Source of the DNA: an uncultured Haloferula sp.
Lineage (GTDB): Bacteria; Verrucomicrobiota; Verrucomicrobiia; Verrucomicrobiales; Akkermansiaceae
Assembly: GCA_965652295.1 (NCBI GenBank)
Contig: CBFGTS010000005.1
Span: 128,001-192,000, forward strand
DNA length: 64,000 nt
Reading direction: 5' to 3'
Program-made: the position numbers and the translations under genes
Notes under the pieces: generated by a model
Told to the model about the DNA's origin: nothing
The model's input: the letters and a program-made list of their open reading frames with translations, nothing else
Database searches by the model: none
Shown: positions 7,508 through 56,569 of the stretch, in pieces
Layout of the letters: each line of letters opens with the position of its first letter
Position numbering within the stretch: position 1 is the first letter of the stretch

Positions 7508-10500
7508 TTACTCCAGCTCGACGGTGTAGAACGCCTTTCCGGCGGGTGCCGTCGCGTCAGTGTAGGTGGTCGATGACCCGGCATCGGCGGAGATGCCGGT
7601 CACTTCCAAGTCCACCGTTTGCAGGTCCAGATACCGGCGGACCGTGAACGTCGTCCCCGGTTGGCTCGGCCAGCTGAAGGTGAAGCCATCGCCCGGGTTC
7701 TCGTCCGAGGTCGTCAGCAGGAACCGCGAGGACGGATCCGTGGGATCAAGTCCCAGGCGGAACTCGGTGACGTCCGGCGTGCCATCCGCGTCGAAATCGG
7801 TGGTGGCGTCCTGATCGAGATCCCCGAAGTGATCGAGTTCCCACTGGTCATCAATGCCATCGCCGTCGGAGTCGCCGGCGGAGCTGAGCGGGTTGGCGAG
7901 GTTCTGGGACGTCGGGTCGAAGTAGATGTTGTCGAACAACATCGCGACATCGCCGTTGAACTTCATGAACCAGAGCGTCAACAGCGGGTTGGTGGCCACC
8001 CCGTTGCGGAACGAGGCACCGGAGGCGATCTGGACCACGCCGCTCTGGCCGAGCGGAGTCTCCATGTAGACATCGACCGTATCGGTGTCGTTGTGGATCA
8101 CCATCCAGACGTTGCTCCATTCTCCGAGCGGATATTGGAAACCGCTGATGTTGCCTCCGGCGTTGCGGACGTTGACGTTGCCATTGTTGTAGCCCATCTG
8201 CGCTTCGAAGTCGCCGGTGCCGGTGGGAGTGGCCACGTCGCTGAGACCCCAGGTCTTGTCCATGGTGGTGGTGGTATCGGTCCGGACCTGGAAGAACAGC
8301 GTGCCGGTATTGCCGTTGAGCAGGTGAAGCTGCAAGGCCGAGAGCGACTTGCGCATGTTTCCGGTCACCCACGAACCAGCCTGATCACCTCCGGCAGGGT
8401 CATTGACCACGGTGGCGGTGCCGGTGGTGGTCCAGCCGTTGACGCCGTTGAACGTCTGGCCGACGACCATTCCGGATCCCTCGAAGTCTTCGATGAGCGA
8501 CCATCCTGCCGTCTGCGGAGGCGTGCTGCCGGCATCGGCCGGATCGCTGCCGTTCGTCACTTCATAGCCATCGCCGAAGCCATCGCCGTCCGAATCGATG
8601 ATGAGCGGATCACTGCCGTGGGTGTTGACTTCGTCACCATCGTTGAGGCCGTCGCCATCGCTGTCGGCCACCAGCGGATCCGTGAAGTGATCGTTCACTT
8701 CGGCACCGTCGGGCAGGCCGTCGCTGTCGGTATCGACCAGCGTCGGGTTGGTGCCGGCGGTGAATTCCCCGGTGTTGTCGAGGTCATCGCCGCTGCCTTC
8801 GTCGAGGTCGTCGGTTCCGTCCTGACTCGTGATGCCGTAGAACGCGAGCCACGAGTCCGGCACGGTGTCGCCGGTGCTCGAGAAGAAGCTCGTCTTGTCC
8901 GTCGGATTGGTGCCGTTGGCGGCCTCGACCAGGTTGGTGTCGAAATCGGCGTCCGGATCGGCACCGGGAGCGCCGTTCGGATTGCTCAGACTGCCGAAGT
9001 AGAACATCTCGAAGTCCTCGTCCGGAAGGTCGTCGCCATCGATGTCGTCCGGCACGGAGTCCGAATTGGTGGGATCGCTGCCGCCGAGCTGCTCGTTGCC
9101 CAGGTTCACGCCATCGGCGTCGCCGGCTTGGGAGGTTCCATTCTGGGTGTTGGCGGCACCGAAGAAGTGGACTTCCCAAGCATCATAGAGCCCGTCGAGG
9201 TCGGCATCCACCAAGGCGTCGGCGTTCTGCGGGCCGGCAACGGTGTTGACCTGCGCGGCGGCACCGGTGAGGGCACCATCGTAGATCCGGACTTCGTTGT
9301 AGGACGCGTTCGCCGTCTCGTCGGCGAAGATCGACTGGCCGAGCCAGTTGTTCACGTCATTGAAGGTGGCCAGCGAACGGTCGGTGTCGAACGAGCCCTG
9401 GGCATAGAAAATGCCCGTCGTATCACCCGCCGGGGCAACCCGCCAGCGGACCCGCGTCCCGGTCTCCAGAGGGAACGGATCGTTGAGCGTGTTCACCGCC
9501 GGAGTGAGCGTCACGACAATGTGATACTCGGTGCCGAGCGCGTAGGGCGCGTTCGTGTTGTTGACCAGGGTGCTGGTGGCAGTGGCCCAGCCAATGCGGT
9601 CGGAATTGATGTTCGTGCCCTGGGTCCAGGACATGAACAGCGCGTCGGTGGTGGTGCCGTTGTTGAAGCTGAACACCCGGCTCCAGTTATGGACGCTTAG
9701 CTGCGTGGCCCAGAGTTCCAAGCTCACCGGCGTCATTTTCCCTTGGAGCAGGTTGCTGCCGAGGCTGACGTAGTCCGACGAGGCCTTCGCTCCGCCGGCG
9801 AGGGTGATGTTGTCGGGGTTCTGCGTCACGTCATTGGCTCCGACTTCCACGATCGTGGCATCGGACCCGCCCACCGAGTCGGTGAGGTCGCCGTTGAAAC
9901 TCCAACGGTGGATGAGCTGCGGACGGGCCGGGGACCAGGCCGCGTCGTTCGGATCCGAGCCGGCGTCGTGCTCCTGCTTGTTGGTGAAGCCGTCGCCGTC
10001 CGGATTTGCAGCGGAGTCGTTGAACGTCGTGTTCAAACCGTGCAGGGTTTCCCACGCATCATTCATGCCGTCGGTGTCGGAGTCCGGCCAATCGGTCGCG
10101 TCGCTGCCGGCGGTATCGGCCGCGAATTCTTCCGCGTTCGTCGCGAAGTCGCCGTCGGGATCATCGGTGCCGTCAAAATCGAGGTTGCCGAAGTTCGTCA
10201 TTTCCCAGTCATCGTCGAGGCCATCGGCATCGGAGTCGGCCGGGAAGGAATTGGGGTCGGTGGGGTCGGAACCGCCGGCGATCTCGGCCGCATTGGAGAA
10301 GGTGTCATTGTCGGAATCGGCGGCACCGGTGGTGACGGCGAGCTCTCCCGTGGTGGGGTTGTCGTCGTTGTTGCCCCAGTAGCGGTCTTCGTCGAAGTCG
10401 CTGAGTCCGTCGTCATCGCTATCGCGATCCTGCACGGTGAGGACGACCTCGTCCCAGCCGGGCCAGGTGCCGCTGACGGTGTTGTGGATGCCCACCCCGA

Positions 10501-12097
10501 TGGGGCGGCCGATGGCCGGGCTGTCACTCGGAACCTCATAGGTGATGGTGTAGCTACCGTCCGAGGTGCCGTTCTGCGCGGTGCCCGGGATTTCGATGAA
10601 ACCGAGGGAAACGTGGGAGGCATCGAAGATGAGGGCCGTGTTGCCGGTGGCGTAGCCGTTCACCCGGTTGTAGGTGAGGCGCAGCACATCCCCTTCCTGC
10701 GCCACGTAGGCGCTCATGTTCTTCGCGCCGTTGCCCGCCTGGGTGAAGGCATGGACCGCCCCGTGGGTCTGACCGCCGGCTTCCACGCCGCTGTCATTGG
10801 ACACGGTCGTTTTTCCCGCCCAGGTCGTCCAGGCATCGATGTTGTTGGGGTCCGCGGCATCCCAGCCCTGCTTGAAGTCCGTGCCAACGGCCACGCCACT
10901 GCGGAACTCGAAGCTGCCGTTGCGTTTCTCCAGGCCGATCAGTTCGTGAAGCGACGGGAAGTCGCTCACGTCGTTGGCATCCGTGCCGTAGAGGAACTCG
11001 TCGGGATCGGTGAAGCCGTCGAAGTCGGTATCCTCGAAGAGCGGGTCGGTCGGATCGTTCGGCCCGATCGGGTTGAGCGTACCGTTGATCTCGTCTCCGT
11101 CGGAGAGGCCATCAGCATCGCTATCCGGATCCAGCGGGTCGGTCGGCACATTGAAGAATGGATTGAGGTCGCCGGAGACCTCGTCGCCATCGTTGATGCC
11201 GTCGCTGTCGCTATCGCCCACCGTCGGATTGGTGCCTTCGCTCTGCTCGTCCACGTTGGGCAGCCCGTCACTGTCATTGTCGAGCGAGCCTCCGCCGTTG
11301 CCGTTGCCGGTGGCGGTCGTGAGATCGCCGAAATGGAAGAGTTCCCAGCCGTCATCGAGGTCGTCGTTGTCGGTATCCGCAGTCGGATCGCTCAAGTCCT
11401 GGGCGGCGGGGTCGACGTAGAGGTCGTCGACGTAGAGGTCCGTGCCCGCCCCGTTGCACAACATCGCGAATGCCTGGAGCGGGTTGGCGGCGACGCCATT
11501 GCGGAAATTCCACGTGCCGTCGGGAGCCATGAGTTCCGTCTGGGTGGCGAAAGCGGCGTCTCCGTCGCTCTGCATGAAAACCCGGTAGGTGTCCGCGCTG
11601 TTGTTCGCCACCACCCAGATCTTGTACCAGACATCCGCCAGCAGCGCCGGACGGTTCGCCACCGGTAAAGTGACACCGCCGTCACGGGCACCGAAAGCCT
11701 CGCCGATGACGAAGGTCTGCGCCTCGAAGGTCGAGAAGTCGGTCAGCGACGGAGGACTTTGGTCGGACAGGCCCAAGGAAATGTCATTGGTCGCCGAGGT
11801 TCGCCGCACCCGGTAGAACATCGTGCCGGTCGCGCCATTGGCGATGGGCGTCGGCAACATCTTGTAGGCATCGTTGATCCCCGTGTGTCTCAGGATCTGG
11901 TTGGCGCTGTCGTCGGGATCGACCGCCACGGTGGAGGTGGTGGTGTCGCCGGCCGTGACGACCCAGCCGTTCTGGCCGCCGATTCCCCCGGGGTTCAGGG
12001 CGTTGAAGCGTTCGACCGGTGTGAGTGCCGCGTGGACCGAACCCGCGGCGGCGAACACCGCGAGCGGTGTCAGCCATGGATGAGCGAAGGATTTCAT
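7508..12097 (-). CDS. Large secreted surface protein: duplicated beta-sandwich domain, many TSP3-like DxDxDGxxD repeats, LamG-like domain, C-terminal KAFY-type domain
   Basis: Signal peptide MKSFAHPWLTPLAVFAAAGSVHA; DSDxDGLxDxxE repeats; LIHRWSFNG...YNEVRIYDGAL; ends APAGKAFYTVELE. Confidence 0.85.
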   Translation of the reverse strand: MKSFAHPWLTPLAVFAAAGSVHAALTPVERFNALNPGGIGGQNGWVVTAGDTTTSTVAVDPDDSANQILRHTGINDAYKMLPTPIANGATGTMFYRVRRTSATNDISLGLSDQSPPSLTDFSTFEAQTFVIGEAFGARDGGVTLPVANRPALLADVWYKIWVVANNSADTYRVFMQSDGDAAFATQTELMAPDGTWNFRNGVAANPLQAFAMLCNGAGTDLYVDDLYVDPAAQDLSDPTADTDNDDLDDGWELFHFGDLTTATGNGNGGGSLDNDSDGLPNVDEQSEGTNPTVGDSDSDGINDGDEVSGDLNPFFNVPTDPLDPDSDADGLSDGDEINGTLNPIGPNDPTDPLFEDTDFDGFTDPDEFLYGTDANDVSDFPSLHELIGLEKRNGSFEFRSGVAVGTDFKQGWDAADPNNIDAWTTWAGKTTVSNDSGVEAGGQTHGAVHAFTQAGNGAKNMSAYVAQEGDVLRLTYNRVNGYATGNTALIFDASHVSLGFIEIPGTAQNGTSDGSYTITYEVPSDSPAIGRPIGVGIHNTVSGTWPGWDEVVLTVQDRDSDDDGLSDFDEDRYWGNNDDNPTTGELAVTTGAADSDNDTFSNAAEIAGGSDPTDPNSFPADSDADGLDDDWEMTNFGNLDFDGTDDPDGDFATNAEEFAADTAGSDATDWPDSDTDGMNDAWETLHGLNTTFNDSAANPDGDGFTNKQEHDAGSDPNDAAWSPARPQLIHRWSFNGDLTDSVGGSDATIVEVGANDVTQNPDNITLAGGAKASSDYVSLGSNLLQGKMTPVSLELWATQLSVHNWSRVFSFNNGTTTDALFMSWTQGTNINSDRIGWATATSTLVNNTNAPYALGTEYHIVVTLTPAVNTLNDPFPLETGTRVRWRVAPAGDTTGIFYAQGSFDTDRSLATFNDVNNWLGQSIFADETANASYNEVRIYDGALTGAAAQVNTVAGPQNADALVDADLDGLYDAWEVHFFGAANTQNGTSQAGDADGVNLGNEQLGGSDPTNSDSVPDDIDGDDLPDEDFEMFYFGSLSNPNGAPGADPDADFDTNLVEAANGTNPTDKTSFFSSTGDTVPDSWLAFYGITSQDGTDDLDEGSGDDLDNTGEFTAGTNPTLVDTDSDGLPDGAEVNDHFTDPLVADSDGDGLNDGDEVNTHGSDPLIIDSDGDGFGDGYEVTNGSDPADAGSTPPQTAGWSLIEDFEGSGMVVGQTFNGVNGWTTTGTATVVNDPAGGDQAGSWVTGNMRKSLSALQLHLLNGNTGTLFFQVRTDTTTTMDKTWGLSDVATPTGTGDFEAQMGYNNGNVNVRNAGGNISGFQYPLGEWSNVWMVIHNDTDTVDVYMETPLGQSGVVQIASGASFRNGVATNPLLTLWFMKFNGDVAMLFDNIYFDPTSQNLANPLSSAGDSDGDGIDDQWELDHFGDLDQDATTDFDADGTPDVTEFRLGLDPTDPSSRFLLTTSDENPGDGFTFSWPSQPGTTFTVRRYLDLQTVDLEVTGISADAGSSTTYTDATAPAGKAFYTVELE

Positions 12098-13485: not shown

Positions 13486-16400
13486 TCACGGAGAGATGCG
13501 GATCCGGTAGAACCCGCGTGGCGGATCCTCCGGCAGCGGATCGCTTTTTTCCAACGAGCCGCCGGTCCCCGTCAGGGGATCTCCGAAGGGCTGCCATGAG
13601 CCGGGGGTGAGGTCGGGGGAAAACTCGATCTGATAGACGTGCCCGATCACCGAGGCCCCGATGGTCATGTGGAGCTGTCCGGAACCTGTGCCGGACCCGT
13701 CGAACATCAGGCGGGAGGCGGCGAGTTCCGCGGCGGTGATGGGTGCGGGAGCCGTGGTGGCGCTGGCTTCATCGGACTCCGCTCCTTCTCCGGCCGCATT
13801 GCCGCTACGGACGACGTAGTAGTAGGTCGTGGTCGGATCGAGGCCGAGGTCGCTGAAGGTGGTGGTTGTGACATCGCCGGAGATCGTGGTGTAGGGTCCG
13901 CCGCTTTGAGTGGAGCGCCCGACGGTGTAGCGCGAGGCTCCGTCAACGGCGGCCCAAGTCAGATCGACGCGGCTTTCCGAAACCGTGGTGGCAACAAGAC
14001 CCGGCGAAACCAAGGGCGGCGTGCTGTAGAGGAGCTGGTCGGGGCCGAGCGCGGTGTCCGAAAGACGGACGTTGTCGATGAAGCCGAAGAAGCGGTCGGC
14101 GTGCGCTCCATCCCACAGGCCGCGGCCGACGGAGATCACACCCGCGTCCCAGTCCGAGCCATCGCCCGCACCGATGGCGAGGGCGGGATCGGAGCTGGAG
14201 GAAAGGTCGGCGGTGCCGAGCAAGGTGTAGGTGGCGTCGCCGCTTGAGAGGTTCCGGTGGTAGAGGGAAAGCGTGTTGCCATCCGAAGCCGCGGCCACCG
14301 CGTGCCATTGGTCGGCGGTGATGGTTCCGCTGGCGGAAACCACCTCCCGGATATTTCCGGCGACATCGGTGTACTGGATGGCGAGGGATGAGCCCCGGGT
14401 TTGGAAATAAAGCACCGAACCATTGCCGGTGCCGGCGTAGTTCCGACTGTCGCGGCCGACGAAGGTGCGGTTTCCGCTGAGGGCATCCGGCCGGATCGCG
14501 GCCTCGATGGTCCACTCGGCCGGGCTCCAGCTGGTAAGCGCGGTGCCGATCGCCGACATGGCGGGGTAGTTGTTGGCAGCTTGGACGCTGAGGGCGTTGG
14601 GCAGGCCGGTCTGCGGTGTGGTGAGGTCGGGCGTGTTGGCGCGATACCACATCCAGTCGGCCGCCCAGGCGGAGAGGTGGTTTCCGTTGCCGGAGCGATC
14701 AATCACGCTGCCATCATACTGGCCGGCGCTGCCCGGAGAGTAGCTGACGTGGGTGTCCGGCTCGCCTTCCTCGAAGGTCCAGTAGGCGACGGGGCCGCGG
14801 GTGGCCGAGGAAGCTTCCTGGCTGTCCGCTTCACCCGCCGCATTCACGGCGCTGACGAGGTAGTGGTAAACCCTGCCGGAATCGAGGCCGTCGTCGCGGT
14901 AGCTGGTGGTGTTCAGATCCGATGCCACGATGGTGTACGGGCCGCCGGAAACATCCGCCCGTTTCACCACATAACTTCCGGCTCCGGCCGCTGCGGTCCA
15001 TGTCAGGTCGATCGCACTCAGCGAAGCCGGCGTCGCCATGAGCCCCGCCGGTGCCTCGGGCGGCGTCATGATCGTGGCCTCCGCGCTGTCGGTGGTGCCG
15101 CCGGAGTTTTCCGCCACGATCATATAATGGTAGGTGCCTCCGGGGGACACTCCATCATCACTGTATTTCGTGCCGGTCATCGAGGTGGCGATCGAAACGT
15201 AGGGGCCGCCGCTCGTCTCCGCGCGCTTTACGGCGTAGTGCGTGGCACCCGCGGCCGGAGCCCAGGTCAGGATGACCTTGCCGGCGGAGAAAGCCGTGGC
15301 CGAGACCGAGGCCGGAGCTTCCGGAAGCGCGGGCGGAGTGCTGTGGAGAAACTCGTCCGGACCGAGTGCGACGTCGGAAAGCCGGATGTTGTCCAGGAAT
15401 CCAAGGAAGCGATCGGTTTGCGCGCCGTTGTAGAGCCCGCGGCCGACGGAGAACTCGCCCGCATTCCAGTCGCTGCCGTCGCCGGAGCCGATGGCCAGCG
15501 CGGGATGGACGCTGGAGGAAATGTCGAGGCTGCCCAGCAAGGTGTAGTTGGCCTCGCCCGTGGTGAGGTTCTTCCGAAAGAGCGAGAGGGTGCTGCCATC
15601 CGAGGTGGCTGCGACCGCCTGCCATTGGTTGGCGACCACGGTGCCGGAAGCGGTGGTGATATTCCAATAATTTCCAGCCACGTCGTGGAACTTGACGGCG
15701 AGCGCCGAACCGACGGTTTGCAGATAAAGGGTCGAGCGCGGGCCGGTGCCGGCGTAGTTGTTGCTGTCGCGGCCGACGAAGGTCTGGTTGCCGCTGGTGG
15801 CGTTCGGGCGGATCGTCGCCTCGATCGTCCATCGCGCCGGGCTCCAGCCGTTGACCGGCGTGCCCACGGTGGTCGAGGAAGGGGCGCTGACGTTGTTCTG
15901 GATACTCAGGGTGTTCGCGGCTCCGGTTTGCGGCGTGGTCGCCGCGGGCACCGCGGCGCGATAGAGGAAGGTATTGCCGGACCAGGGCGACAGATGGTTT
16001 CCATTGCCGGAGACATCGGAAATGCTGCCGATGTAGGTGCCGTCGGTGGCGGGGCCGGGGACCGGCGCGTTGGCTGTGCCTTCCTGAAAGTCCCAGTGCG
16101 CCACCGTGCCGTAGGGTGACGTGGCGACCCCGGCGAGCGAAGCGATTTCGGCCGTTTCCAAGGCGTAGTTGAAGATGCGGAAATCGTCGATCATGCCGGC
16201 GAACAGCGGGTCCGAGGCCCACTGGCTGTCACCGATGTAGTTGAAGGTCGGCGCGAAGTCGGAGGGGTTGATCGTCACCTTGGTGTTGCTTGCCATCGGG
16301 AAGCCGTTGACGAACAGGGTGGCGGTATCGCCCGCCAGCGTCACCGCGACGTGCACCCATTGCTGGGTCGGCAGCCGGGTGGTGCGGACAAACTGCTCGC

Positions 16401-19400
16401 TGCCGCCATTCTTGATCGCGAAACGCATGCCGCTGCCGGACTCGGGCGTGAGGAACAGGTATTGGTTGGTGCCGTTGCCAAAATCGAAGATGCGTTGCCA
16501 TGAGCCGCCGCCATCCCAGTAAACCCAGGTGGCGATCGTGAGGTCGGTGTAGTCGGCGGCTCCGGCCGGCAGGGTCACGAGATCATCGACGCCATCAAGG
16601 ATGATGGCTTGGCCGGCATACCCGGGCGCATAGGCGGGCGATCCTGTCGTGACGCCATGAGAGCCGCTCGAAGCGTCATCGCTATTGTCTTCGAAGCGGA
16701 AGTGGGCCCGGAGGAGCGCGGATGGCAGCACCTGGACTTGAAAGATCACATCGCTGGAGGCACCCGCGAGATCGGTCGTCCGGAGCGTGAATTCATTCAA
16801 GCCCACGTCACCGCTGCCGGGGCTGCCGGAAAGCGTGCCATCGGCAGACACCTGGAGCCATGCCGGGCCGGAGTGCTTGCCGATCGTGAAGCTGTCGCCG
16901 AGGTCCGCGTCCGAGACATTCCCGGCAACCGAAAAGCTGTAGGATTCATCCTGGGTCACGAAGCCGCCGTCGATGGGATCGCTGTCCCACTCGGGAGCGC
17001 CGTTGAGATTGGCGACGGTGACGTGCAGATTCACATCGTCGCTCGCGCCGGACGAGTCCGTAACGCGGACGACGAAGATATTTTCACCCACGTCGGCATT
17101 CGCGGGCGTGCCGGACAGAGCGCCGTTGGCGGCGACGACGAGCCAGGCGGGGCCAGCGACCTTGCTGTAGATGAGCCCGCCGCCGTCCGGATCGGTCGCG
17201 CGGGTGACCAGCGTTTCCGCCGGGGACGAGTAGTTCGTCCCTTCCTCGGCGTCCGAAAGAATCAGCGGCCGCGACTGGAACACGGGCGGCTGATTCGCCG
17301 ATTGGCCCCACAGCGCGTGAACTTCGCTGCCGGATAGCGCGTGATTGTAGATCCGGAAGTCGTCGATCATGCCGCTGAAATAGGCGTCGTCGTTCCACAT
17401 GCTGCGGCCGAGATAGCAGAATGGCTGGGCGAAGAGCGGGCGGGCTCCGGGGAGGGTCGTGGAGTTCGACGGGGAGCCGTTGAGATAGAGCGTGGCCGCG
17501 TCGCCCTGAAGCGTGACCGCCAGATGGACCCACTGTCCGACGGGCATCGCCGGGCCGTCGAGGGTGAGCGTCCCATCGGTGGCGCGGGAAGTGGTCATCT
17601 GGAAGCGGATGGCGCCATTCGATGCCTTCGGCGTGAGCATCATGTATTTGTCGATGTCGCTGCCGAAGTCGAAGACGCGCTGCCAATTCGCGCCGCCGTT
17701 CCAGCGGACCCACGTCGCGATGGTGATGTCTTCGAAATTCCCCGAGCCTACGGGGAGCTGAACGTATGGGCCGGAGCCATTGAGGGAAATCGCCTGACCA
17801 CCGCCGAAGCCGGAGGCGTAGGCCGGCATGGTCGGTCCCTTGGGTTCGGCGTGACGACCGTTCTCGGTCTCGTTGGCATTTCCATCGAACGGATAGCGGG
17901 CGACGAGCCGCTCGCGGACCTCCAACGGATCGCTGTCGAGATCGCCCGACGGGGTCGTGGCGGTGACGAGATAATAGTAGGTCACGCCGTCCGCGACCGT
18001 GCTGTCGGTGAAATTCAGGCCCGACCCGGTGACGGTGCCGAGGGTGGTGTAGGGGCCGGCCTCGCTGGCGGCGCGTTTTACGAGGTAAGCGGTGGCGGTC
18101 GCGGTGCCCCACCAGTTGAGGATGACGCGGTCCTTGCTGCGGTGGGCGACGAGCCCGCTCGGCGCGGCGCCGGTCGCGATCGGATCGCGGGCATAGGTGA
18201 GGCTGCCGAGGCCGAGCCAGTCGACCTGCGACGGGTGAAAGGCCGTATTCGGTCGCGGCTCGGGCCGGGTGACGTCCACCGCCAGCTTGCTCCACGGAGC
18301 GGCGATGCCTTTGACGTTGGCGTAGTGGTTGTGGACCAGCTCGTATTGATAGTATCCACCGAGCCCGCGGCCGTGGCCGGAGAGGGTCTCGGTGTAGGTC
18401 AGGGTGGTATTGCGGTGGGGGACCCAGGGAACGTCGTTGAAGAGGTTGTATTTGGCGTTGTATTCGAAGGCGCGCAGCGCGCGGTTGTTGTCCCAACCGA
18501 ACAGGTCGTCGCCTTGATTCCAGCCCATCTGGCAGAGCAGGGCCATGGCGTGCCAGCCGCCGAGGTTGTGAGCTTGGTCGCGACCGCTTTCCTCGGTCTG
18601 GGAGGTGCCGTCGGGGAAGAGATACCACGCTGCGCGATCGACCCGGCCGTTGCCGTTGCCGTACTTGAAATGATCAACGGCCTGTTCGTAAACGGCGCGG
18701 TTGTCGCAGAGAATGCCGATGGCGGCGACCGAGGCCATGTTGGCCGTATCCCAGTTGAGGCGGTAGTGGGTGTTGCCGCCTTTGGTGAAGGGAGTGTCGT
18801 GGTGGCGCCAGAGGAAGTCGAGATTTCGCGGGTAGAAGACCCGCATCATCATGTCCTTGTAGGCCTGCTTTTCCGCCTCCGGCCAGCCGGAGTAGGTGCT
18901 GAGGAGTTCGCCACCGCTGGCGAAAAGGTAGCCGCAGATGCCGGCGGCCAGGGATGCGTTGGTATCGCCCTGGATGCCGATGAGGTCCGACCAGGTATTG
19001 GCGATGTGCACCGCGTGGTCGGCGTAGGCGGTGTCGCCTGTGAGGTGCCAGCGCAGCGCCAACTCATAAATCGCCTGCGCGTCCTGCTGGGAGCGGGTGT
19101 AGTTGTTGCCGCTGCCGCCTCGGACGATGTAATCGATGTTGTAGGCGGGCCACCAGGTCTGGGCCCACGGACTGTCGGCGAGGATGTCGAAGCTGGATTT
19201 CCACGGTTCCTCGCTGGCATCGACCTTCGCCTTCATGCGGTCGAGATCGGCCTGGGTGTGGAGGGTTCCAGGGTGGGCGAAGACCGGAGGCGGCGAAGCG
19301 AGGGCCGTCATGTCCGCCTGGAACACATGGTCGCCGGCAACTGGCGTGATGGTGTCGCCCGAATAGTGATAGGCGGTGCCGTCGGCGTAGGGATCGGTGC

Positions 19401-25894: not shown

Positions 25895-26626
25895 ATGCAA
25901 TACCCCAGCACCTTGAGGAGCATCTGCTTCTTCACCGCAACCTTGGCCGGTGCGCCACTGGCCTTCGGTGCCATCACCTATGTCGACGCCACGCACGGCG
26001 TGAGCGCCAACACCACCGGCTCCACCACGAGCATCGGCGATCCCTTCGTGCCCCTCGCGGTGCAGGGCCCGGCGAATGACAATCAATGGGACGTCCGCGC
26101 CTTCGGCAATGGAACGACCATTTACCAGAATGCCTCCACCCCGGCGAACGTTGACAACGCCCACCGGTTGCGCACATCGGCCACCGTGCCAGCGGGCACT
26201 TACGACGTTTACGCCTTCTTCTGGAGCGACGCGAGCAGTGGCTGGCGCCTTGGCGCGTCCCTCACCGACGACCAGCCCGATCTCACGCTCTACCAGCCCG
26301 GCGATACGGATGTGACCCAGTATTACACGGTCGATACCACCACCAATCTCCCATCGCCGTTCCTGAGTTCGTCTCTTGCCGAAAATCCATTCGATTCGGC
26401 AGTCATGATCGCGGAAGGGAACCGCCGCCTGTACGGGGTGTACCTCGGAACAACCACCGGTACGAGCATCGACGTGTTCATCGATGACGATCCGGCCATG
26501 GCCGATTTCAACCAGCGCACTTGGTATGACGGCATCGGATATGCCGTGGTGCCCGAGCCCTCCTCGCTCGCCTTGGGAGGGCTGGGAATGTTCGGCCTGC
26601 TGATTCGCCGGCACCGCCGGTCCTGA
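25895..26626 (+). CDS. PEP-CTERM sorting-domain protein
   Basis: Signal peptide; ends VPEPSSLALGGLGMFGLLIRRHRRS. Confidence 0.92.
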   Translation: MQYPSTLRSICFFTATLAGAPLAFGAITYVDATHGVSANTTGSTTSIGDPFVPLAVQGPANDNQWDVRAFGNGTTIYQNASTPANVDNAHRLRTSATVPAGTYDVYAFFWSDASSGWRLGASLTDDQPDLTLYQPGDTDVTQYYTVDTTTNLPSPFLSSSLAENPFDSAVMIAEGNRRLYGVYLGTTTGTSIDVFIDDDPAMADFNQRTWYDGIGYAVVPEPSSLALGGLGMFGLLIRRHRRS

Positions 26627-37841: not shown

Positions 37842-37873
37842 ATCCATCGCCCACCCACTGTCACGATTTCCGC

Positions 37874-37899: not shown

Positions 37900-37952
37900 A
37901 TGCAGTCGGAGGAGGTGTCGGAAACGCCGCGCCATCCCGCAGCGAATCACTG

Positions 37953-42684: not shown

Positions 42685-43488
42685 TCAGCGCCGCCGCCGA
42701 CGCGCTACGGCACCCAGTAGCAGCGGCAGTCCGAGCACCGGCACGGTCGGCTCCGGCACGCCGAGCGCGGCTCCCACGATGTTGTCGAGAAGCTGAACGC
42801 CGTTCGAAGTGAAGTTGCTGAAGTCCTCGGGCAAAGCGTAGAAATAGCGGGCATCCCCGAGGGTATTCCCGCTGCCCGTGGTACCGCCTGCCTCCCAGCT
42901 CGCCACGATCACGTTCTGGAAATTGATGTTGTTCCGCACGGCAATGGTCATGCCATCACCCATCACCGTGCCACCGTCCGGGATGTCCGAACTGGAGGAA
43001 AATGAATACTTCTCAAGTCCTGAGATGGCGGGATCGGCGATCGTGTTTCCAATAAGTCCGGAGAACAATGGGTGGACGGTGGCCGTTCCCGGAGGTGCCG
43101 AAAGGTCGTTCCCGTAGTCCACTTGGATGAGATCCGTATTCACATAGCTCCAGCGATTGTTGCGGGCGATGTAGGCGTTTCCGAGCACCACCGGTGTGGT
43201 CAGGGAATCCCACGCGGCGACTTCCAGAGTGCCATCCGCGTAGTTTCCGCTGTTCGTGTTGCGTGTCACGATGACGAGGTCCGCCGCGTTGAGCGTGGCG
43301 ACGTCGGCCGGATTCGATTCGATGGTGGCGTAGCCACCGGTCGCCACCGTGTGGCCGAGCGACTGCAGGTGGGAAACCAGGTCGCCGTCTCGCACGGCAT
43401 CGCCAGTGACCACCACGACGGAGGCGGCGGGAGCCGCGCCGGCGAGGCAGAGAGCGATGAGGAAGAAGGGGGTGGATGGGTTGATCAT
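42685..43488 (-). CDS. PEP-CTERM sorting-domain protein
   Basis: Signal peptide; ends VPEPTVPVLGLPLLLGAVARRRRR. Confidence 0.9.
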   Translation of the reverse strand: MINPSTPFFLIALCLAGAAPAASVVVVTGDAVRDGDLVSHLQSLGHTVATGGYATIESNPADVATLNAADLVIVTRNTNSGNYADGTLEVAAWDSLTTPVVLGNAYIARNNRWSYVNTDLIQVDYGNDLSAPPGTATVHPLFSGLIGNTIADPAISGLEKYSFSSSSDIPDGGTVMGDGMTIAVRNNINFQNVIVASWEAGGTTGSGNTLGDARYFYALPEDFSNFTSNGVQLLDNIVGAALGVPEPTVPVLGLPLLLGAVARRRRR

Positions 43489-45151: not shown

Positions 45152-45186
45152 GGGTTCAGTAAAAAATCGCAGCGGAGGCATCAGGC

Positions 45187-49179: not shown

Positions 49180-50016
49180 ATGAAATTGCGAAACCTTCTC
49201 ATCGCTTCAGGCCTCCTGAACCTCACGCTATCGAGCCACGGTGCCCTGATCGCCCACTACACCTTGGACGAAGGCGCGGGGGCGACCACCGCCGCCAATG
49301 AAGTCGGCGGTTCGACGGCCGGAGCGGTGGGCTCCCTCGTCACCACCGGCGTCACCGGTGTTTCCGGAAATGCCTACAGTTTCACAGGTGCCGCCGCGCA
49401 GGACAACATCGTCGACATGGGCAATGCCTCGTTCCTCCCCTCCATCGCGACGAGCGGGCAGTATACGTTTTCGGCCTGGGTCAATTCGTCCGAAGTTGTT
49501 GGTGGTCGCAATGTGGTGGTGTTTGCCGGCGACAGCGGCGACAGCAACAGCTACATCGACCTCGGAACGGCGATCGATGACCTGACTCCTCCCGGCCAGG
49601 CCTACATGCGCCATCGCGTCGATACGAACGGTGCCGGTGCGTCCAGTTTCTTTGGCGGTACCGATGGAGTTGTGGTCGATGGCACCTGGCATCATATCGC
49701 CATGACGGCGGACACCGGAACGCTGACGATCAATCTCTATGTTGATGGGGTTTTCAGAAGCACCGGAGCCATCGTCCCGGGTTCGTCCGGAAACTTCCCG
49801 CTCCTCAACAATTTTGAAATCGGCCGTCTCGGCCGCTCGGCACCGACGGATGGCTACCAAGGCCTGGTCGACGATGTGCAAGTGTATGACCACGCTCTTT
49901 CAGCCGGCGAAATCGCGTTCATTTTCGCCAACCCCGGCCAGGCCGTGCCGGAGCCTGGCTCTCTCGCCCTCGTCGGCCTCGGGGCACTGACGCTGATTCG
50001 CCGCAAGCGTGCTTGA
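49180..50016 (+). CDS. LamG-domain PEP-CTERM protein
   Basis: LIAHYTLDE...WHHIAMT...VDDVQVYDHALS; ends VPEPGSLALVGLGALTLIRRKRA. Confidence 0.93.
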   Translation: MKLRNLLIASGLLNLTLSSHGALIAHYTLDEGAGATTAANEVGGSTAGAVGSLVTTGVTGVSGNAYSFTGAAAQDNIVDMGNASFLPSIATSGQYTFSAWVNSSEVVGGRNVVVFAGDSGDSNSYIDLGTAIDDLTPPGQAYMRHRVDTNGAGASSFFGGTDGVVVDGTWHHIAMTADTGTLTINLYVDGVFRSTGAIVPGSSGNFPLLNNFEIGRLGRSAPTDGYQGLVDDVQVYDHALSAGEIAFIFANPGQAVPEPGSLALVGLGALTLIRRKRA

Positions 50017-50886
50017 TCAAGCGGCCCGACACACGACGCCTCTCCAACGCATCCCCGGACCCAGCCGTCCGGGGATGCCTGTGAGCGCGGGCAATCCCGG
50101 CAAGATCTCACATTCGAACCCCAATCCATGAACAGAATCCATCTTTTCTTAATCCCGGCCGCGCTTTCCACAGTGGTCGATTGCCGTGCCGATCTGATCG
50201 CCCACTACAAGTTCGACGAAAGCAGTGGAGCAACCACCGCCGCAAATGAAGTCGTCGGTTCCTCGACAGGTGTGGTGGGTGCATCGGTCACCACCGGAGT
50301 AGCCGGGATCTCCGGAAGCGCCTACAGCTTCACGGGCAGCTCCACGCAGGACGACATCGTCGACATGGAGAACGCTTCGTTTTTCCCCTCCATTACCTCC
50401 AGCGGCCAATACACGTTTTCAGCTTGGATCAACTCGTCCGAACTCGCTGGCGGCCGCAATGTGGTCGTCTTTGCTGGCGACAGTGCGGATAGCAACAGCT
50501 ACATCGACCTCGGCACTGCGATTGATGAGCTAACCCCCCCTGGCCAAGCCTACATGCGTCACCGTGTCGACACGAACGGTCCAGGTGCGTCCAGTTTCTT
50601 TGGCGGCACCGATGGAGTGGTGGTCGATGGCACATGGCATCACATCGCCATGACGGCGGACACCAGCACGTTGACGATCCGCCTCTACGTGGATGGCGTC
50701 TTCGCAAGCAGCGGTGCCCTCGTTCCCGGTTCCTCCGGGAACTTCCCGATCTTCAACAACTTCGAGATCGGTCGCCTTGGCCGATCCTCCCCTACCGATG
50801 GGTATGAGGGCCTCGTCGACGATGTCCAAGTCTACGACAAAGCGCTTTCCGAGGCCGAAATCTCCTTTCTTTTCAACAACCCGGGT
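49246..50886 (+). repeat. Direct repeat of a ~690-bp LamG coding segment (49246-~49939 and 50194-~50886)
   Basis: Both copies start ctgatcgcccactac. Long near-identical stretches differ mostly at third codon positions. Confidence 0.9.
50049..50078. other. Perfect 12-bp intergenic hairpin without U-tract
   Basis: gcatccccggac-ccagcc-gtccggggatgc. Confidence 0.75.
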
Positions 50887-52713
50887 GAAACTTTCTCCGA
50901 AGACGACACGGATTTCGACGGCCTCGCGGATGCTTGGGAGATCCTCTACTTTGGCAACATCGAGGCCTTCTCGGGCGACGATATCGGACCCGATGCGGAC
51001 GGTGCGACCAACTTGCAGGAACAGGCGGCAGGCACCAATCCCACCATTCCGGATACGGATGGGGACGGCCGCACTGATGGTGCTGAACTCAATGTGGCTC
51101 CTCTGACCCATCCTCTGGATCCTGACTCGGACGATGATCAGCTCACAGACGGTGAAGAAGTGGACATCCACGGCACCGATCCAAACAGTGGGGATACCGA
51201 TGCAGACGGACTTCCGGATAAATGGGAACTCGACAACTCTCTGAGCCCATTGAGTGATGTGGGCGACGACGGGGCTTCCGGCGATCCCGACGAAGACGAT
51301 TCGATGAACTCGAACGAGTACAACGACGGAATCGATAGCTCCGATCCCCACGACGCTGACTCCGACGATGACGGCTTGAGCGACGTGCAGGAAGATCGCT
51401 TCGGATCATGGGCAGGTCTGGAATTCACGGGAACCAGTCCAACCAATCCCGACACCGATGGCGACGGCTTCCTCGACGGCGAGGAGAACCCCGATCTCGA
51501 ATACGTCGCGGGCGTCACCCCGGGCACCGATCCCAATATCGCGGACAGTGATCTCGACGGCTTCGGCGACAAGGCGGAGTTTGATTTCGGCAGCGATCCC
51601 ACCGATTTCGAATCCTTCCCCGTGGTGGCCAGGGGGCTGGTGGCCCACTACAAGTTCGACGAAGCCGCCGCTGCCACGACCGCCGTCAATGAACTGGGTA
51701 ACAGCCCGGGGGTCATCGGTACCGCGGTCAACACCGGTGTCACAGGCATGTCTGGCAACGCATACCAGTTCAACGATCTGGCTACTCAAGAGGGCATCGT
51801 GGACATGGGGCTGGCGGAGTTTCTCACCGATATTCTCGCCACCAAGGCGCTGACATTTACCGCCTGGATCAAGTCGACGGATGTCTCCAGCGGGAGAAAC
51901 GTCGTCATCTCCGCTGCCAACAGCGCCGTGGCAAACAGCTATGTGGATATGGGCATCGTCGGCGAAGGCCTCTCGCTTGGCTCACTTCATGGACGCCTCC
52001 GCCCCAACGGCAATGGCAACATCACCGAAAGTTTCAGCAGCGCTGAGCCGAACGCGACTTTCGTGACCGATGACGAATGGCACCACATCGCTCTGACGAT
52101 TGACGTGGAGGCCTCGGCTCTCCGGATTTTCGTGGATGGCCTCCAAGTCGGTGCGGACCGAGCGCTTGTTTTGGCAACGTTGCCGGTATTCAACAACTTC
52201 GAGGTCGGTCGTCTTGGGCGCGCGGTGCCTACGGATGCCTTCGAGGGTCTTGTCGATGATATCCAGGTCTACAATGAAGCATTGAGTCCGGCCCGGATCG
52301 CCTCGCTCTATGCCATGCCGGGCGTGTCGGCGGATGAAGACCGGGACCGGCTGGACGATCAATGGGAGATCACGTTCTTCGGCAGCATCGAAGCCCAGGA
52401 TGGCTCGGGCGATCCGGACGACGACGGCTTTACCAACGAAGAAGAGGAAACCGCGGGGACGTCTCCGGTGCCGGCAACCGCCGCCCTCGAAGTCACCTCC
52501 GTGAATTTCACTCCGGGCGGCGATTTCATCATCCAATTCACCGGCGAACCGGGCACCACCTATCAAATCACCAAATCCGCCGATCTCGACGGATTTGTTC
52601 CCCTCACACCACCCGTCACCGCCACGACGGATGGAGCCGGTCAAGGCGGGGCCACCGTGCCTGCCGCGGAGGCCTCCGAAGACGCGGAATTCTATCGCGT
52701 CGAAAGCCAGTAG
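50128..52713 (+). CDS. Secreted protein: LamG + TSP3-like repeats + LamG + C-terminal FYR domain
   Basis: Two LIAHYKFDE/LVAHYKFDE domains, DxDxDG repeats; ends EDAEFYRVESQ. Confidence 0.88.
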   Translation: MNRIHLFLIPAALSTVVDCRADLIAHYKFDESSGATTAANEVVGSSTGVVGASVTTGVAGISGSAYSFTGSSTQDDIVDMENASFFPSITSSGQYTFSAWINSSELAGGRNVVVFAGDSADSNSYIDLGTAIDELTPPGQAYMRHRVDTNGPGASSFFGGTDGVVVDGTWHHIAMTADTSTLTIRLYVDGVFASSGALVPGSSGNFPIFNNFEIGRLGRSSPTDGYEGLVDDVQVYDKALSEAEISFLFNNPGETFSEDDTDFDGLADAWEILYFGNIEAFSGDDIGPDADGATNLQEQAAGTNPTIPDTDGDGRTDGAELNVAPLTHPLDPDSDDDQLTDGEEVDIHGTDPNSGDTDADGLPDKWELDNSLSPLSDVGDDGASGDPDEDDSMNSNEYNDGIDSSDPHDADSDDDGLSDVQEDRFGSWAGLEFTGTSPTNPDTDGDGFLDGEENPDLEYVAGVTPGTDPNIADSDLDGFGDKAEFDFGSDPTDFESFPVVARGLVAHYKFDEAAAATTAVNELGNSPGVIGTAVNTGVTGMSGNAYQFNDLATQEGIVDMGLAEFLTDILATKALTFTAWIKSTDVSSGRNVVISAANSAVANSYVDMGIVGEGLSLGSLHGRLRPNGNGNITESFSSAEPNATFVTDDEWHHIALTIDVEASALRIFVDGLQVGADRALVLATLPVFNNFEVGRLGRAVPTDAFEGLVDDIQVYNEALSPARIASLYAMPGVSADEDRDRLDDQWEITFFGSIEAQDGSGDPDDDGFTNEEEETAGTSPVPATAALEVTSVNFTPGGDFIIQFTGEPGTTYQITKSADLDGFVPLTPPVTATTDGAGQGGATVPAAEASEDAEFYRVESQ

Positions 52714-52822: not shown

Positions 52823-55800
52823 GTGAATCGACTTTGGGCCCTTCTGCTCTCTCTTGGTCTTGTCTCCGTGCTCCACGCCGCGCCGCCTTCCTCCTCCGGC
52901 TTGGCGCTCCATTTCGATGCCTCGGACATCGATGCCCAGAAAAACACCTCCCTCCTCGACGGCGAAGCGATCACCGTTTGGAAGGACCTTTCAGGAAACC
53001 AGCTCGACCTCGACATGCCGACCGGCACGCCGACCTACATCCAACCCGGTCCGGGATTCGGCGGCCTGCCCGTGGTGCAGTTCAATCCGGTCGACTTCAA
53101 TGGAGCGGACTACCTCAGCAGGGCCGCAGCCCCAATCCATGATTACCCCTTCACCGTGTTCGCCGTCGTGCGCTCCGCCACCACCCGCAACGCGGTCATC
53201 TTCTCCCTGGTCGACGCCCAGAGCCGCGAAAAAATGGCGGGCATCCGCTTCGTCTATGAAGGTAACGGCGAGCCCGGGCGCATCAGCCTCTTCCGCCGCA
53301 ATCCCGTGTGGGTCGAGGCACCCAGCAGCGAGGCTTTCAACGACAATGCGTTCCACATCGTCACCGCCCGATTTGTGAATCCATCGCTCGCGCGACTCTA
53401 CGTCGATGGCCAGTTGAGGGCCACCTCGGAGACTCACATCGCCCTGCCTACCTTCAACCGCTTCGACCTTGGAAACAACGGTCGCAACCAGTCCACCACC
53501 GATCCCTACGAGGGCCAGATCGCCGAGTTGATGGTCTACGACGAGGACCTGGACGGAAGTGAACGGAGAGAAGCGGAGGCCTATCTCTCGGAGAAATGGA
53601 TCACCGGCCGGGCGGGCATCGCCACCACCCACAACGCCGTCGATTTCGGATCGGTCGCCCTCAGTGAACCGCAGAGCCGCGAGATCACGATCACCCACAG
53701 TGGCGCCGAGGACGGCAGCATCACGATCGAAAGCCTCGATCTAGGGTCGCTCGGCGACTTCTCCCTGCGCGCCTACCTCAACGAGGAGGAGCTCGAGCCC
53801 GCCGACCCGACCGCCTATCCCTTCACCCTCTCGCGGGCCTCGGGCGATGAACTCCGTCTGGTGGCGACGATCACGCCGACTGCGGGCGAGCTCGATTACC
53901 ACGGTTCGCTCCGGATTTTGAGCAACGCGGAGAACCAACCTGATCTCGCCATCCCCCTCACCGCCCGCCTGCGGAACCGCGTTGGTGTGACGGACTACGA
54001 GAATCATCGTAGCGAGGGAAACCGGATCCATTTCGATCTCCAGGGAAATGCCGAAGTGTGCCTTACGCTGAATACGGCGGCCATGGCCCGGATTCAATAC
54101 GCTCCCGACGGGGAATTCCGATCGGACGATTCCCCCGACTATTTCATGGTCCGGAAATTCGCGTGGGACCCGGTCACCTACAGCATCCAGGACCATGGTT
54201 CCTATCTCGGGATCCACACCTCCGCCATGACCGTCCGGGTGCAGAAGAGCCCGTTCCGTATCCAGCTTTACGACCCCTCGAATACCATTCTGATCGTCAA
54301 GGATTCGGACGAGGAAGGGATGTACGCGGAGCAGGGGCAGCGGGGAGTGGTCCGGGTGGAGAACGACGGTGAACATGCCCGTTTCGGTTTCGGTAGCGGC
54401 GATCACGGGCATTCGCGTCCGCTCGACAAACGGGCGGGCTATGACCAGTTCACGGTCACCCACGGTCGCACCTGCGTTCCCTTTTTCATGAGTATGGCCG
54501 GTTACGGCGTGTTTCTGAATACGGTCGAGAAAGACACGGCGTTCGATGACTCGGGAGGATTCAGGACGACGGGATTTCTCGATTACTGGTTCATGGTCGG
54601 GGATTTCAAAAAGGTGCTCGGTCTCTACAGCGAGCTGACCGGGCGGATGAACCTGTTTCCCAAATGGGGCTACGGCTTCATGCTCTCGAAGTATGGGAAC
54701 GACAACGCCACCCAGGCCGAATTTCTGGAATGGATCCACCGTTTGCGTGACGAGGGCTATCCCACTGACTCGTACGTCTTCGATTATGGCTGGCGCGGCG
54801 CGAAGTTCGATCCGCACCGCTGGAATGCGCAGCGTTACCCTGATATCAGCGCGATGTTCGCGGAGGCGCGGCAGCTGGGTTTCCACATCGGACTTCACAA
54901 CAACAAGGGCACGCCCGAAGCAGGCAATGGCAATTTCGCTGATCCGGGCGTCGCCGAGAATTGGTGGCGCGCTCACTGGGATAACGTGATCGAACCCGGC
55001 CATGGCGATTGGTTCTGGCCGGATGAGTTCGACGTCGCCGGCGATAACCTGATGGCGAACCGCGCTGCCAAGATTGTTCATGAGCGGTGGCTTGAGGCGA
55101 CGACGGACCAGCGTCCGATGTTCCTGACCCGCGGCGGCTTCGCCAACCACCATTTTTCCTCAACATGGTCCGGCGACATCCCGAATACGATTGCCGAGAT
55201 GAGCGAGCAGATCACGGGGGCCCTTGCGCTCGGCATGTCCGGTTACCCGTGGTCTTCCAACGACCTCGGCGGCTTCTTTGCGAAACCCTCGGACGAGCTC
55301 TACATCCGATGGGTGGCCCAGTTCGGTGCGTTCAGCGGACTCATGCGTGCTCACGGCCACGATGGCCGGGAGCCTTGGCTGTATGGCGAACGCGCCCAAG
55401 AGAATCTCCGCCGTTACCTGAAGATCCGCTACCGGCTTTTCCCCTACATCTACACCACTGCATGGCAGGGTGCCCGGCACGGCATCCCGATGATGCGAGC
55501 AATGGCGATCGAGCATCCTGCCGATCCGGAAGCATGGACAAAGGACAGCCAATATTATTTCGGCGATTGGCTGCTCGTCGCTCCCGCCCTTTCCACCCAG
55601 GACACCCAGGTTTCCGTCTGGCTTCCTGAAGGAACCTGGTATGACTTCTTCGACCCGAGTGTAAGCCACGAAGGCGGCCGGACCATCACTGTCAGCGCGA
55701 CCCTGGATCAGATTCCGGTATTTGTGAAAGCGGGAGCGATCATTCCGAGCGGACCGGACGTCTCCCATGCGGATGCGAAGCCCCTGAACCCTCTGACTCT

Positions 55801-56569
55801 AGACCTGTATCCCGGTGTCCACGCCACCTCTTACCGCCTCTACGAAGACGACGGTATCACTCGGGCCCATTTGCTTCAGGACGCGTACAGTTTTACGAAC
55901 TTCACGGCACATCGTCCTCAGAAAAACACCCTTCGATTCACCAAGGGGACAACTGAAAATGGAAATCCGGCGGTGTTCTCTCCTGCCCTTCCACGAGGCA
56001 CCGTCATACGTGCCCACCAGTGGAGCGAGGAACCACGCATGGTGTTGATCGGCAGCAACCTGGTTCCCCGGTCGGAATCCCTCACGTCTCTGGAGAATCA
56101 GAATAGCGGGTGGTTTTGGACCCGGGAGAGCGAGCAACTCATCATCCGCTTCACCGACGATGGCTTCGAGCATCGGATCGTCGCCAGCGCGACCCTTCTC
56201 GACAGCGATGGCGACGGGTTGAATGATCTCCGCGAGGCGGAGATCGGAACGGACGTCTATCAAGCCGACACCGACGGCGATGGCCAGAGCGATCTCATGG
56301 AGGTTTCGTTCGGTATTTCACCCGTGGACTCGTCGTCCCGCGTCTCCGTGTCCGGCAGCGTCATTTCCGATGATCCGTCCCAGTTCCAGGTCACTTGGCC
56401 GAGTGCCCCGGGAACCCTCTATCTTGTGGAAAAATGGCAGGAAGTCGCTCGGGCATGGCAAACGATCGCGGAGTTGCTCGCCACCACCAGCACTTCCCAT
56501 TTCAGCTGGCCGATGACCGAATCAAAAGTGATTCTCAGAATCCGCTCGGACGCAACCCATCAGGAATAG
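52823..56569 (+). CDS. Secreted glycoside hydrolase family 31 with N-terminal LamG-like and Ig-like domains and C-terminal TSP3-like/sorting-type domain
   Basis: ELTGR...PKWGYG, DYGW, FWPDE, WSGD, NDLGGF, ELYIRW, RAHG...REPW, RYRLFPYIY, QYYFG, VWLPEGTWYDF, LYEDDG. GTG start at 52823 gives a signal peptide. Confidence 0.9.
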   Translation: MNRLWALLLSLGLVSVLHAAPPSSSGLALHFDASDIDAQKNTSLLDGEAITVWKDLSGNQLDLDMPTGTPTYIQPGPGFGGLPVVQFNPVDFNGADYLSRAAAPIHDYPFTVFAVVRSATTRNAVIFSLVDAQSREKMAGIRFVYEGNGEPGRISLFRRNPVWVEAPSSEAFNDNAFHIVTARFVNPSLARLYVDGQLRATSETHIALPTFNRFDLGNNGRNQSTTDPYEGQIAELMVYDEDLDGSERREAEAYLSEKWITGRAGIATTHNAVDFGSVALSEPQSREITITHSGAEDGSITIESLDLGSLGDFSLRAYLNEEELEPADPTAYPFTLSRASGDELRLVATITPTAGELDYHGSLRILSNAENQPDLAIPLTARLRNRVGVTDYENHRSEGNRIHFDLQGNAEVCLTLNTAAMARIQYAPDGEFRSDDSPDYFMVRKFAWDPVTYSIQDHGSYLGIHTSAMTVRVQKSPFRIQLYDPSNTILIVKDSDEEGMYAEQGQRGVVRVENDGEHARFGFGSGDHGHSRPLDKRAGYDQFTVTHGRTCVPFFMSMAGYGVFLNTVEKDTAFDDSGGFRTTGFLDYWFMVGDFKKVLGLYSELTGRMNLFPKWGYGFMLSKYGNDNATQAEFLEWIHRLRDEGYPTDSYVFDYGWRGAKFDPHRWNAQRYPDISAMFAEARQLGFHIGLHNNKGTPEAGNGNFADPGVAENWWRAHWDNVIEPGHGDWFWPDEFDVAGDNLMANRAAKIVHERWLEATTDQRPMFLTRGGFANHHFSSTWSGDIPNTIAEMSEQITGALALGMSGYPWSSNDLGGFFAKPSDELYIRWVAQFGAFSGLMRAHGHDGREPWLYGERAQENLRRYLKIRYRLFPYIYTTAWQGARHGIPMMRAMAIEHPADPEAWTKDSQYYFGDWLLVAPALSTQDTQVSVWLPEGTWYDFFDPSVSHEGGRTITVSATLDQIPVFVKAGAIIPSGPDVSHADAKPLNPLTLDLYPGVHATSYRLYEDDGITRAHLLQDAYSFTNFTAHRPQKNTLRFTKGTTENGNPAVFSPALPRGTVIRAHQWSEEPRMVLIGSNLVPRSESLTSLENQNSGWFWTRESEQLIIRFTDDGFEHRIVASATLLDSDGDGLNDLREAEIGTDVYQADTDGDGQSDLMEVSFGISPVDSSSRVSVSGSVISDDPSQFQVTWPSAPGTLYLVEKWQEVARAWQTIAELLATTSTSHFSWPMTESKVILRIRSDATHQE

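Follow-up and report, generated by a model that had tools for sequence, protein, structure and literature searches.

Verrucomicrobiota are major glycan degraders in the gut, soil and sea, and how they put their Sec-exported enzymes on the cell surface is a question raised by a 64,000-nucleotide stretch of DNA (the window) from an uncultured Haloferula sp. (GCA_965652295.1, contig CBFGTS010000005.1, positions 128,001 to 192,000), in which seven exported proteins with different cargoes end in similar tails. A first-pass annotation of the window proposed that these tails are a cargo-independent sorting signal. Our results show that they belong to a real, uncatalogued and abundant domain family, and we consider it probable that the domain acts as an address for the cell surface. 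Given that role, secretin machines are the somewhat favored way out. The proposal as a whole, a folded and uncleaved tag by which Sec-exported cargo reaches the cell surface through secretin machines of type II or type IV-pilus-like kind, has in our judgement slightly less than an even chance of being right.

A terminal domain on many exported proteins

A profile was iterated from the seven tails, trimmed to the domain core and searched against 27,455 six-frame open reading frames (ORFs) of G000, the source genome of the window, at an independent E-value (iE) <1e-3; an untrimmed iterated profile drifted into the upstream TSP3 loops and was replaced by this core profile. The seven tails are copies of one domain of ~78 residues, two of which match weakly. 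When the window rows were left out of the profile, five tails scored between iE 8e-13 and 4e-4, the tail at 32962 scored 0.013 and that at 26833 scored 0.17. A total of 101 ORFs carry the domain, while the best match among reversed ORFs reached iE 1.0. The C-terminal position bias for which the annotation had asked was found, 89 of the 101 copies lying at most 20 residues from the stop, against 3.2 expected under uniform placement. The remaining 12 are divided between six that directly follow a signal peptide and six that are internal or on a short ORF.

Median pairwise identity in the family is 21%, with the consensus Y-x-V-E-x-S-x-D-L-x-x-W ... P ... [RK]-x-F-x-R-hydrophobic. The common tail domain seen in the window was therefore real, but the K-x-F-Y-R ending ascribed to it was too narrow, since K.F[YF]R is found in 8 of the 89 C-terminal copies and [FY]-x-R-hydrophobic in 72; the WPSxPG/FTGEPG-like stretch said to precede the tail is rare genome-wide (7/89). 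TSP3-like loops stand just before 59 of these copies. A crude signal-peptide rule was passed by 73 of the 89 carriers and, for comparison, by 688 of the 1932 other large proteins and by 62 of the 74 PEP-CTERM controls. The last residue is Glu in 20 of the 89 tagged proteins (9% of all genes) and Pro in 40 (11% of all genes), and the frequency of Pro suggests a retained end.

Other export signals were considered. Tat export was ruled out by the lack of any Tat motif match among tagged proteins, and a beta-barrel insertion signal by the presence of a terminal F or W in only 2 of 88. An autotransporter-passenger-like repeat motif occurs in eight genes, all of which have the domain at their end, six at the strict threshold and two with a looser profile (G000 C1, C2, C3, C5, C8 and C12); a barrel-type terminal F or W occurs in none of the eight. 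One internal copy of the domain is in an exported protein that looks cyclophilin-like on inspection (L122, G000 C11:4440-5831, minus strand); this protein, coded downstream of ribH-nusB-like genes, is a candidate foldase of the export route. At the end of G000 C5 (L065:6893-10844), three tandem exported proteins have near-identical N-termini, and a Peptidase_S74 chaperone domain was found in the one that was scanned.

In the window itself, all seven C-termini of the annotation were located. As it had claimed, the cargoes differ (alginate lyase/LamG/fn3, GH31, LamG, TSP3-only, unassigned), the seven N-termini, judged by eye, look like Sec-type signal peptides, and no tagged protein (0/7) has a PEP-CTERM ending. 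The tagged genes and their terminal domains are:

7508..12097, minus strand: exported 1529-aa TSP3-loop cargo with 13 TSP3-like DxDxDG loops
7511..7744, minus strand: its terminal FN3-like domain, predicted to have no strand G; copy taken for the structure model (iE 1.9e-7)
13486..20070, minus strand: exported alginate-lyase/LamG/Ig/fn3 cargo, with a complete fn3 immediately before the tag
13489..13749, minus strand: its terminal domain (iE 2.5e-11)
26833..29871, minus strand: exported 1012-aa cargo without a Pfam family
26836..27054, minus strand: its terminal domain, divergent, a weak match (iE 0.17 with window rows left out; 0.52 with the core profile)
32962..34008, minus strand: exported 348-aa cargo with one TSP3 loop
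32971..33141, minus strand: its terminal domain, divergent or shortened, a weak match (iE 0.013 with window rows left out; 0.15 with the core profile)
40253..42499, plus strand: exported cargo with TSP3 loops
42236..42496, plus strand: its terminal domain (iE 3.7e-9)
50128..52713, plus strand: exported cargo with two LamG domains and TSP3
52465..52710, plus strand: its terminal domain (iE 8.2e-13)
52823..56569, plus strand: exported LamG and GH31 glycosidase with TSP3 loops, GTG start
56321..56554, plus strand: its terminal domain (iE 4.2e-4)
63884..64000, plus strand: start of an eighth tagged gene, whose terminal domain is past the window end

Predicted fold of the domain

No convincing model for the domain was found when 66 tails were searched against Pfam and NCBIfam, a point that the annotation had left to be checked; the best was DUF3999 (4/66, E 0.005). 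None of the 66 tails matched PF00041 and none matched the C-terminal domain (CTD) models for type IX secretion systems (T9SS) in these libraries at E<=0.1. One tail matched F5/8 type C (discoidin) at E 0.053. The tails do not run on beyond the R-x-V-R strand into a complete discoidin domain, and discoidin cross-hits can be told apart by 17-21 further residues after that strand.

The cargo-independent beta-sandwich proposed in the annotation agrees with both the predicted fold and the structural matches. The AlphaFold 2 (AF2) model has six strands and a pLDDT of 89.5, and its best structural matches are FN3 domains (Z up to 7.5), whose alignments break off around residue 75 of 93-96, at strand F. 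The A-B-E / C'-C-F sandwich topology was found in the match to a Tencon variant (Z 7.1, root-mean-square deviation 2.2, 65 residues). Comparison to FN3 repeats by hhalign gave 94%, again with an alignment that ends on strand F, and where a protein has F-x-R as its last strand, its tandem arrays have a period of 78 residues (119 intervals) versus 92 in ordinary FN3 arrays (59 intervals). Strand G has no counterpart in the predicted fold, and in N-terminal copies TSP3 loops follow strand F. Because the alignments end at strand F and the period is 78 and not 92, the domain is predicted to be an FN3 sandwich without its last strand (G). Foldseek returned nothing at E<=0.001, no T9SS CTD is named among the best 50 structural-match rows, and the ESM Atlas gave unnamed clusters only, with Verrucomicrobiota commonest. 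A library sequence search gave 47,543 representatives at E<=0.001, ordinary FN3 cross-hits included.

With such clear FN3 ancestry, it could be argued that the domain is an ordinary FN3-derived carbohydrate-binding or spacer module with no role in targeting, and the presence of some internal copies and arrays agrees with that, as does a weak resemblance in sequence to binding modules of chitosanases (PDB 4zxe, E 6e-4). However, where these proteins also have ordinary FN3 or binding modules, those are internal, whereas this domain is terminal, at one end or the other, in 95 of 101 ORFs, and it comes as one copy per protein, at one end, on unrelated cargoes that include non-glycan ones. We therefore consider a plain module improbable.

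Use of the domain at either protein end

The annotation had described a purely C-terminal signal, a claim that had to be given up. In six G000 proteins the domain sits right behind the signal peptide and TSP3 loops follow, and in one family with 1215 matches, the tag is at the N-terminus in 107 of the 120 members listed, is at the C-terminus as well in none of them, and has TSP3 loops directly after it in 106. The N-termini of this family form one cluster and the last 250 residues form eight; the family looks polymorphic-toxin-like. The domain also occurs in tandem arrays. The calcium-loop (TSP3-like) spacers are on the cargo side, before C-terminal tags and after N-terminal ones.

Four G000 paralogues have ~140 residues inserted ahead of strand F and retain the strand itself. 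In a low-confidence model of an inserted paralogue (pTM 0.51), ~75 residues spanning 1-215 align to FN3 residues 1-79 (Z 3.9), which is consistent with a distal strand F that closes the same sandwich. The split N-terminal tag of four paralogues of ~960 aa (L065:1822-4677, L124, L067 and L068; G000 C5, C1, C14 and C3) goes with an HExxH-type C-terminal region, and the C5/C1 pair is near-identical over ~770 aa and divergent beyond.

Use at either end favors recognition of the fold at a free protein end and disfavors a cleaved, strictly C-terminal signal. The tag likely works from either protein end, without the known type IX machinery.

PEP-CTERM genes beside tagged genes

A route parallel to PEP-CTERM/exosortase was also part of the original claim. 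The two tags are indeed mutually exclusive, since none of the 74 PEP-CTERM-like proteins of G000 has the domain, but they are genetically tied and not simply parallel: a PEP-CTERM gene directly adjoins 24 of the 88 tagged genes, compared to 32 of 688 genes for other large exported proteins. A membrane-helix-like stretch was seen in 1 of 89 tagged C-termini, and the combination of PEP motif, membrane helix and basic tail was not found. Twenty of the 74 PEP-CTERM-like proteins have a tagged homologue, and eight adjacent tagged/PEP-CTERM pairs share an N-terminal domain (36-77% identical). PEP-CTERM genes lie next to five of the window's seven tagged genes; in the pair 49180/50128, the first LamG of the tagged protein is 76% identical to the LamG of the PEP-CTERM protein. 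These neighbors are:

25895..26626, plus strand: PEP-CTERM gene (C-terminal motif read from sequence), convergent, abuts the 26833 cargo
34031..34903, minus strand: PEP-CTERM gene immediately upstream of the 32962 cargo
42685..43488, minus strand: PEP-CTERM gene, convergent, abuts the 40253 cargo
49180..50016, plus strand: PEP-CTERM LamG gene immediately upstream of the 50128 cargo
56773..57351, plus strand: PEP-CTERM gene immediately downstream of the GH31 cargo

Sigma-like genes and their partners are found just upstream of tagged or PEP-CTERM genes of the window (sigma labels by inspection). They are two small genes like those of extracytoplasmic function (ECF) sigma factors, each paired with a Ser/Thr kinase-TPR gene (37584-40121 and 46206-49000, plus strand), and a sigma-like/FecR-LamG pair (35045-37200, plus strand).

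Amuc0953 of Akkermansia muciniphila

The idea of a surface-translocation tag has already been published for one protein, the A. muciniphila sulfatase Amuc0953 (PMC13524802). According to the accessible text of that paper, transposon mutants showed that extracellular 3S-Gal sulfatase activity comes from Amuc0953, which has a signal peptidase I (SPI) signal and is not in the medium, and that the paralogue of this protein, Amuc0451, is intracellular. The AlphaFold 3 (AF3) model of its final domain was described as resembling T9SS CTDs and its translocation as occurring by an "unknown mechanism", and the authors suggested that a comparable system may exist (PMC13524802; likewise bioRxiv 10.1101/2025.09.11.675649). 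The reverse cloning primer given there encodes LRLKVTR before the stop, and this end, together with the tails of orthologues, makes it very likely that the Amuc0953 C-terminus belongs to the same domain family. A protein from one genus of our survey, g2, matches PDB 9s8x, an entry of the same paper, over residues 26-1285 and continues with a TSP3 loop and the domain, for which reason we take g2 as Akkermansia-like; the shorter sulfatase-PA14 paralogues do not have the domain (5/5).

In other work on A. muciniphila, as far as the accessible text goes, Amuc_1098 was reported as the most abundant outer-membrane protein (PMC4960237), Amuc_0953 and Amuc_2164 as BACON-bearing mucinases and Amuc_1470 as an exosortase (PMC3048395). 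A look through the accessible main text of the outer-membrane proteome study found neither Amuc_0953 nor Amuc_2164, one supplement likewise did not yield Amuc_2164, and the accessible parts of PMC8966484, PMC11790493 and PMC9957290 hold nothing on the domain. A literature search whose coverage left out most subscription journals found no description of the domain at family level. New here are the ~100 cargoes per genome, the N-terminal use, the strand predicted to be missing, the arrays, the pairing with PEP-CTERM and the machinery profiles, none of which is in the accessible text of PMC13524802.

Secretion machinery across genomes

The survey covered 201 genomes of the phylum, with at most 28 candidates scored per genome; the genomes are related, and the machinery counts are not statistical tests. 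Domain matches were found in 101 genomes. Of these, 78 had at least four matches and were called domain-rich, and the 23 with one to three were left out of the profile count, since inspection of five showed discoidin cross-hits in three, an exclusion that also loses true carriers such as G078 and G070. In the co-occurrence profiling that the annotation had suggested, GspG and GspK were present in 73 of the 78 domain-rich genomes, an Amuc_1098-type secretin in 76, an exosortase in 78 and at least one secretin system in all. PF03934 was dropped as a marker of the type II secretion system (T2SS), as it misses G000 and matches HhH proteins. NF042425 under-detects the Amuc_1099 slot (47/78), adjoining PilM-like and secretin genes being present in 20 of 20 clusters examined.

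G000 has four secretins, among them an Amuc_1098-1102 cluster and a type II cluster, gspG-H-I-J-K-L-M-C-D (assigned by profile for G, K, M and D and by gene order for the others). An Amuc_1099-family protein (L063:7818-8915, G000 C10) has the loop module found ahead of the tag in cargoes, DxDxDG-FTNxEE-xxxTDP, invariant in 17 homologues, and this module may be an evolutionary link between tag and machine.

The five domain-rich genomes without type II markers are all g2. The g2 copies are truly C-terminal at 29 of 30 loci, on GH18, sialidase and sulfatase cargoes, and the secretins of the two single-contig g2 genomes checked are exclusively Amuc_1098-type. In G078 (C1:1125017-1125499), just an N-terminal fragment of an Amuc0953-type sulfatase gene is left and a tagged GH18 is kept. 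That the domain is a signal for the canonical T2SS alone could be suggested by the G000 cluster and by the 73 of 78 domain-rich genomes with GspG and GspK. Nevertheless, six g2 genomes hold true C-terminal copies with neither GspG nor GspK, so the canonical T2SS is not required, and Amuc0953 reaches the surface in Akkermansia all the same. Exclusive use of the T2SS is very improbable.

A dedicated T9SS-like translocon, with the domain cleaved off and the cargo anchored covalently as suggested for Amuc0953, is another explanation. Many cargoes with one tail and an Ig-like fold do resemble T9SS cargoes, the authors of PMC13524802 state such a resemblance for their AF3 model, and neither secretin type is universal among carriers. 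On the other hand, a C-terminal transpeptidase that removed N-terminal copies would lose the cargo, the seventh strand that T9SS requires has no counterpart in the predicted fold, and the terminal Pro of 40 of 89 proteins (11% background) suggests that the end is kept. PorV was found in none of five genomes tested, with a positive control in Bacteroides thetaiotaomicron, and SprA had no match in G000 in a search in which no control genome gave a match either. We consider this translocon quite unlikely. The analogy to the T9SS CTD made in the annotation survives in function, as the domain likely works like a CTD and the protein of one member is surface-bound, but not as membership of T9SS, given the six predicted strands, the use at either end, the absence of PorV in five genomes and the lack of a model match.

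A proposed route to the cell surface

The order of parts can be read from the sequences: a signal peptide, the cargo, TSP3-like calcium loops and the tag, or the mirror order where the C-terminus is variable. Strands A-F are predicted to leave strand F (F-x-R) as an open edge next to the conserved S-x-D-L-x-x-W turn. A receptor would read the fold at the free protein end, and not a free carboxyl group, and may donate the missing strand, as in strand complementation; the open F edge would take a strand from its partner, recognition would be non-covalent and the cargo would be retained without cleavage. Cargo would then pass a secretin of GspD or Amuc_1098 type and remain cell-bound outside, as shown for the protein Amuc0953 but not for the tag itself. 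A fuller version of this proposal is rather doubtful. In it, the domain is a position-independent secretion and display tag, a G-less FN3 whose missing strand is donated by a receptor that belongs to a secretin machine or to a scaffold at the surface. The tag would then mark enzymes and adhesins, up to hundreds of them, at the C-terminus and polymorphic-toxin-like proteins at the N-terminus, and would be deployed together with PEP-CTERM twins of the same binding domains.

Several observations weigh against a secretin-borne address tag. The fold Z-scores are below 8, and six copies in G000 lie internally or on a short ORF. The window also codes for another exported alginate-lyase protein (fn3, CBM6, Big, CBM35; 21148-25497, minus strand) that has no terminal tag; it adjoins its tagged paralogue and provides a natural control inside the locus. 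Amuc0953 and Amuc0451 differ by three domains, the tag not being the sole difference, and Amuc0121, whether tagged or not, is likewise at the surface according to the accessible text of PMC13524802. Secretins are near-universal (185/201 genomes), which makes their co-occurrence weak evidence, and no pilin-motif gene lies within three genes of any of 88 tagged genes. GspG or GspK occurs in none of 16 g2 genomes, six of them with true C-terminal copies, while G177 (one contig, 18 matches, 6/6 inspected C-terminal) has GspG and GspK and no full-length Amuc_1098-type secretin. No one machine covers all carriers, and the secretin route therefore needs two interchangeable machines. Finally, the exosortase tracks the domain better than secretins do, 78 of 143 exosortase-positive genomes being domain-rich versus none of 58 without exosortase.

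This last pattern, together with exosortase in 78/78 domain-rich genomes, would also be expected if the domain were a docking module of the PEP-CTERM/exosortase layer, with cargo leaving by the route of PEP-CTERM proteins and the domain, in the manner of a dockerin or SLH domain, doing no more than bind a scaffold or glycan at the surface. The gene adjacency (24/88 versus 32/688; five of seven in the window) and the eight pairs with a shared N-terminal domain (36-77% identical) point the same way, an anchor that works by avidity would fit with the tandem arrays and the placement at either end, and Amuc0953 is cell-bound. Yet such a module leaves passage of the outer membrane unexplained, genome relatedness inflates the exosortase pattern and 65 of 143 exosortase-positive genomes are not domain-rich, and we regard it as unlikely.

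If the domain is a surface address, its profile predicts the surface-enzyme set of any member of the phylum, here ~100 of 3374 called genes. The Akkermansia-like g2, with few cargoes, no T2SS and Amuc_1098-type secretins, makes the question testable with existing transposon tools.

Comparison with known systems

The closest known case is the CTD of Amuc0953, which is like this family in its terminal sequence and in the surface-translocation role proposed for it; the accessible text of its paper covers that protein and close homologues by AF3 resemblance and does not describe a broader family. T9SS CTDs (Por_Secre_tail) have, in the accessible text of PMC11285876, seven strands in a 3+4 sandwich with an essential terminal beta7. 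Like the tag described here, they are small Ig-like sandwiches that end many unrelated Sec-exported proteins in the manner of an address label, but our tag has six predicted strands, is also found N-terminally and in arrays, and has no profile match to them. FN3 (PF00041) aligns with the tag over strands A-F by structure and by profile. Unlike FN3, which has strand G, the tag is predicted to be without it, is terminal and has its own S-x-D-L-x-x-W and F-x-R signature. PEP-CTERM/exosortase (TIGR02595, PF07589) likewise puts a terminal tag on many exported proteins, in the same genomes and often from neighboring genes with the same lead domain; its tag is a membrane helix with a basic tail, whereas the one described here is a folded domain that never occurs on the same protein (0/74).

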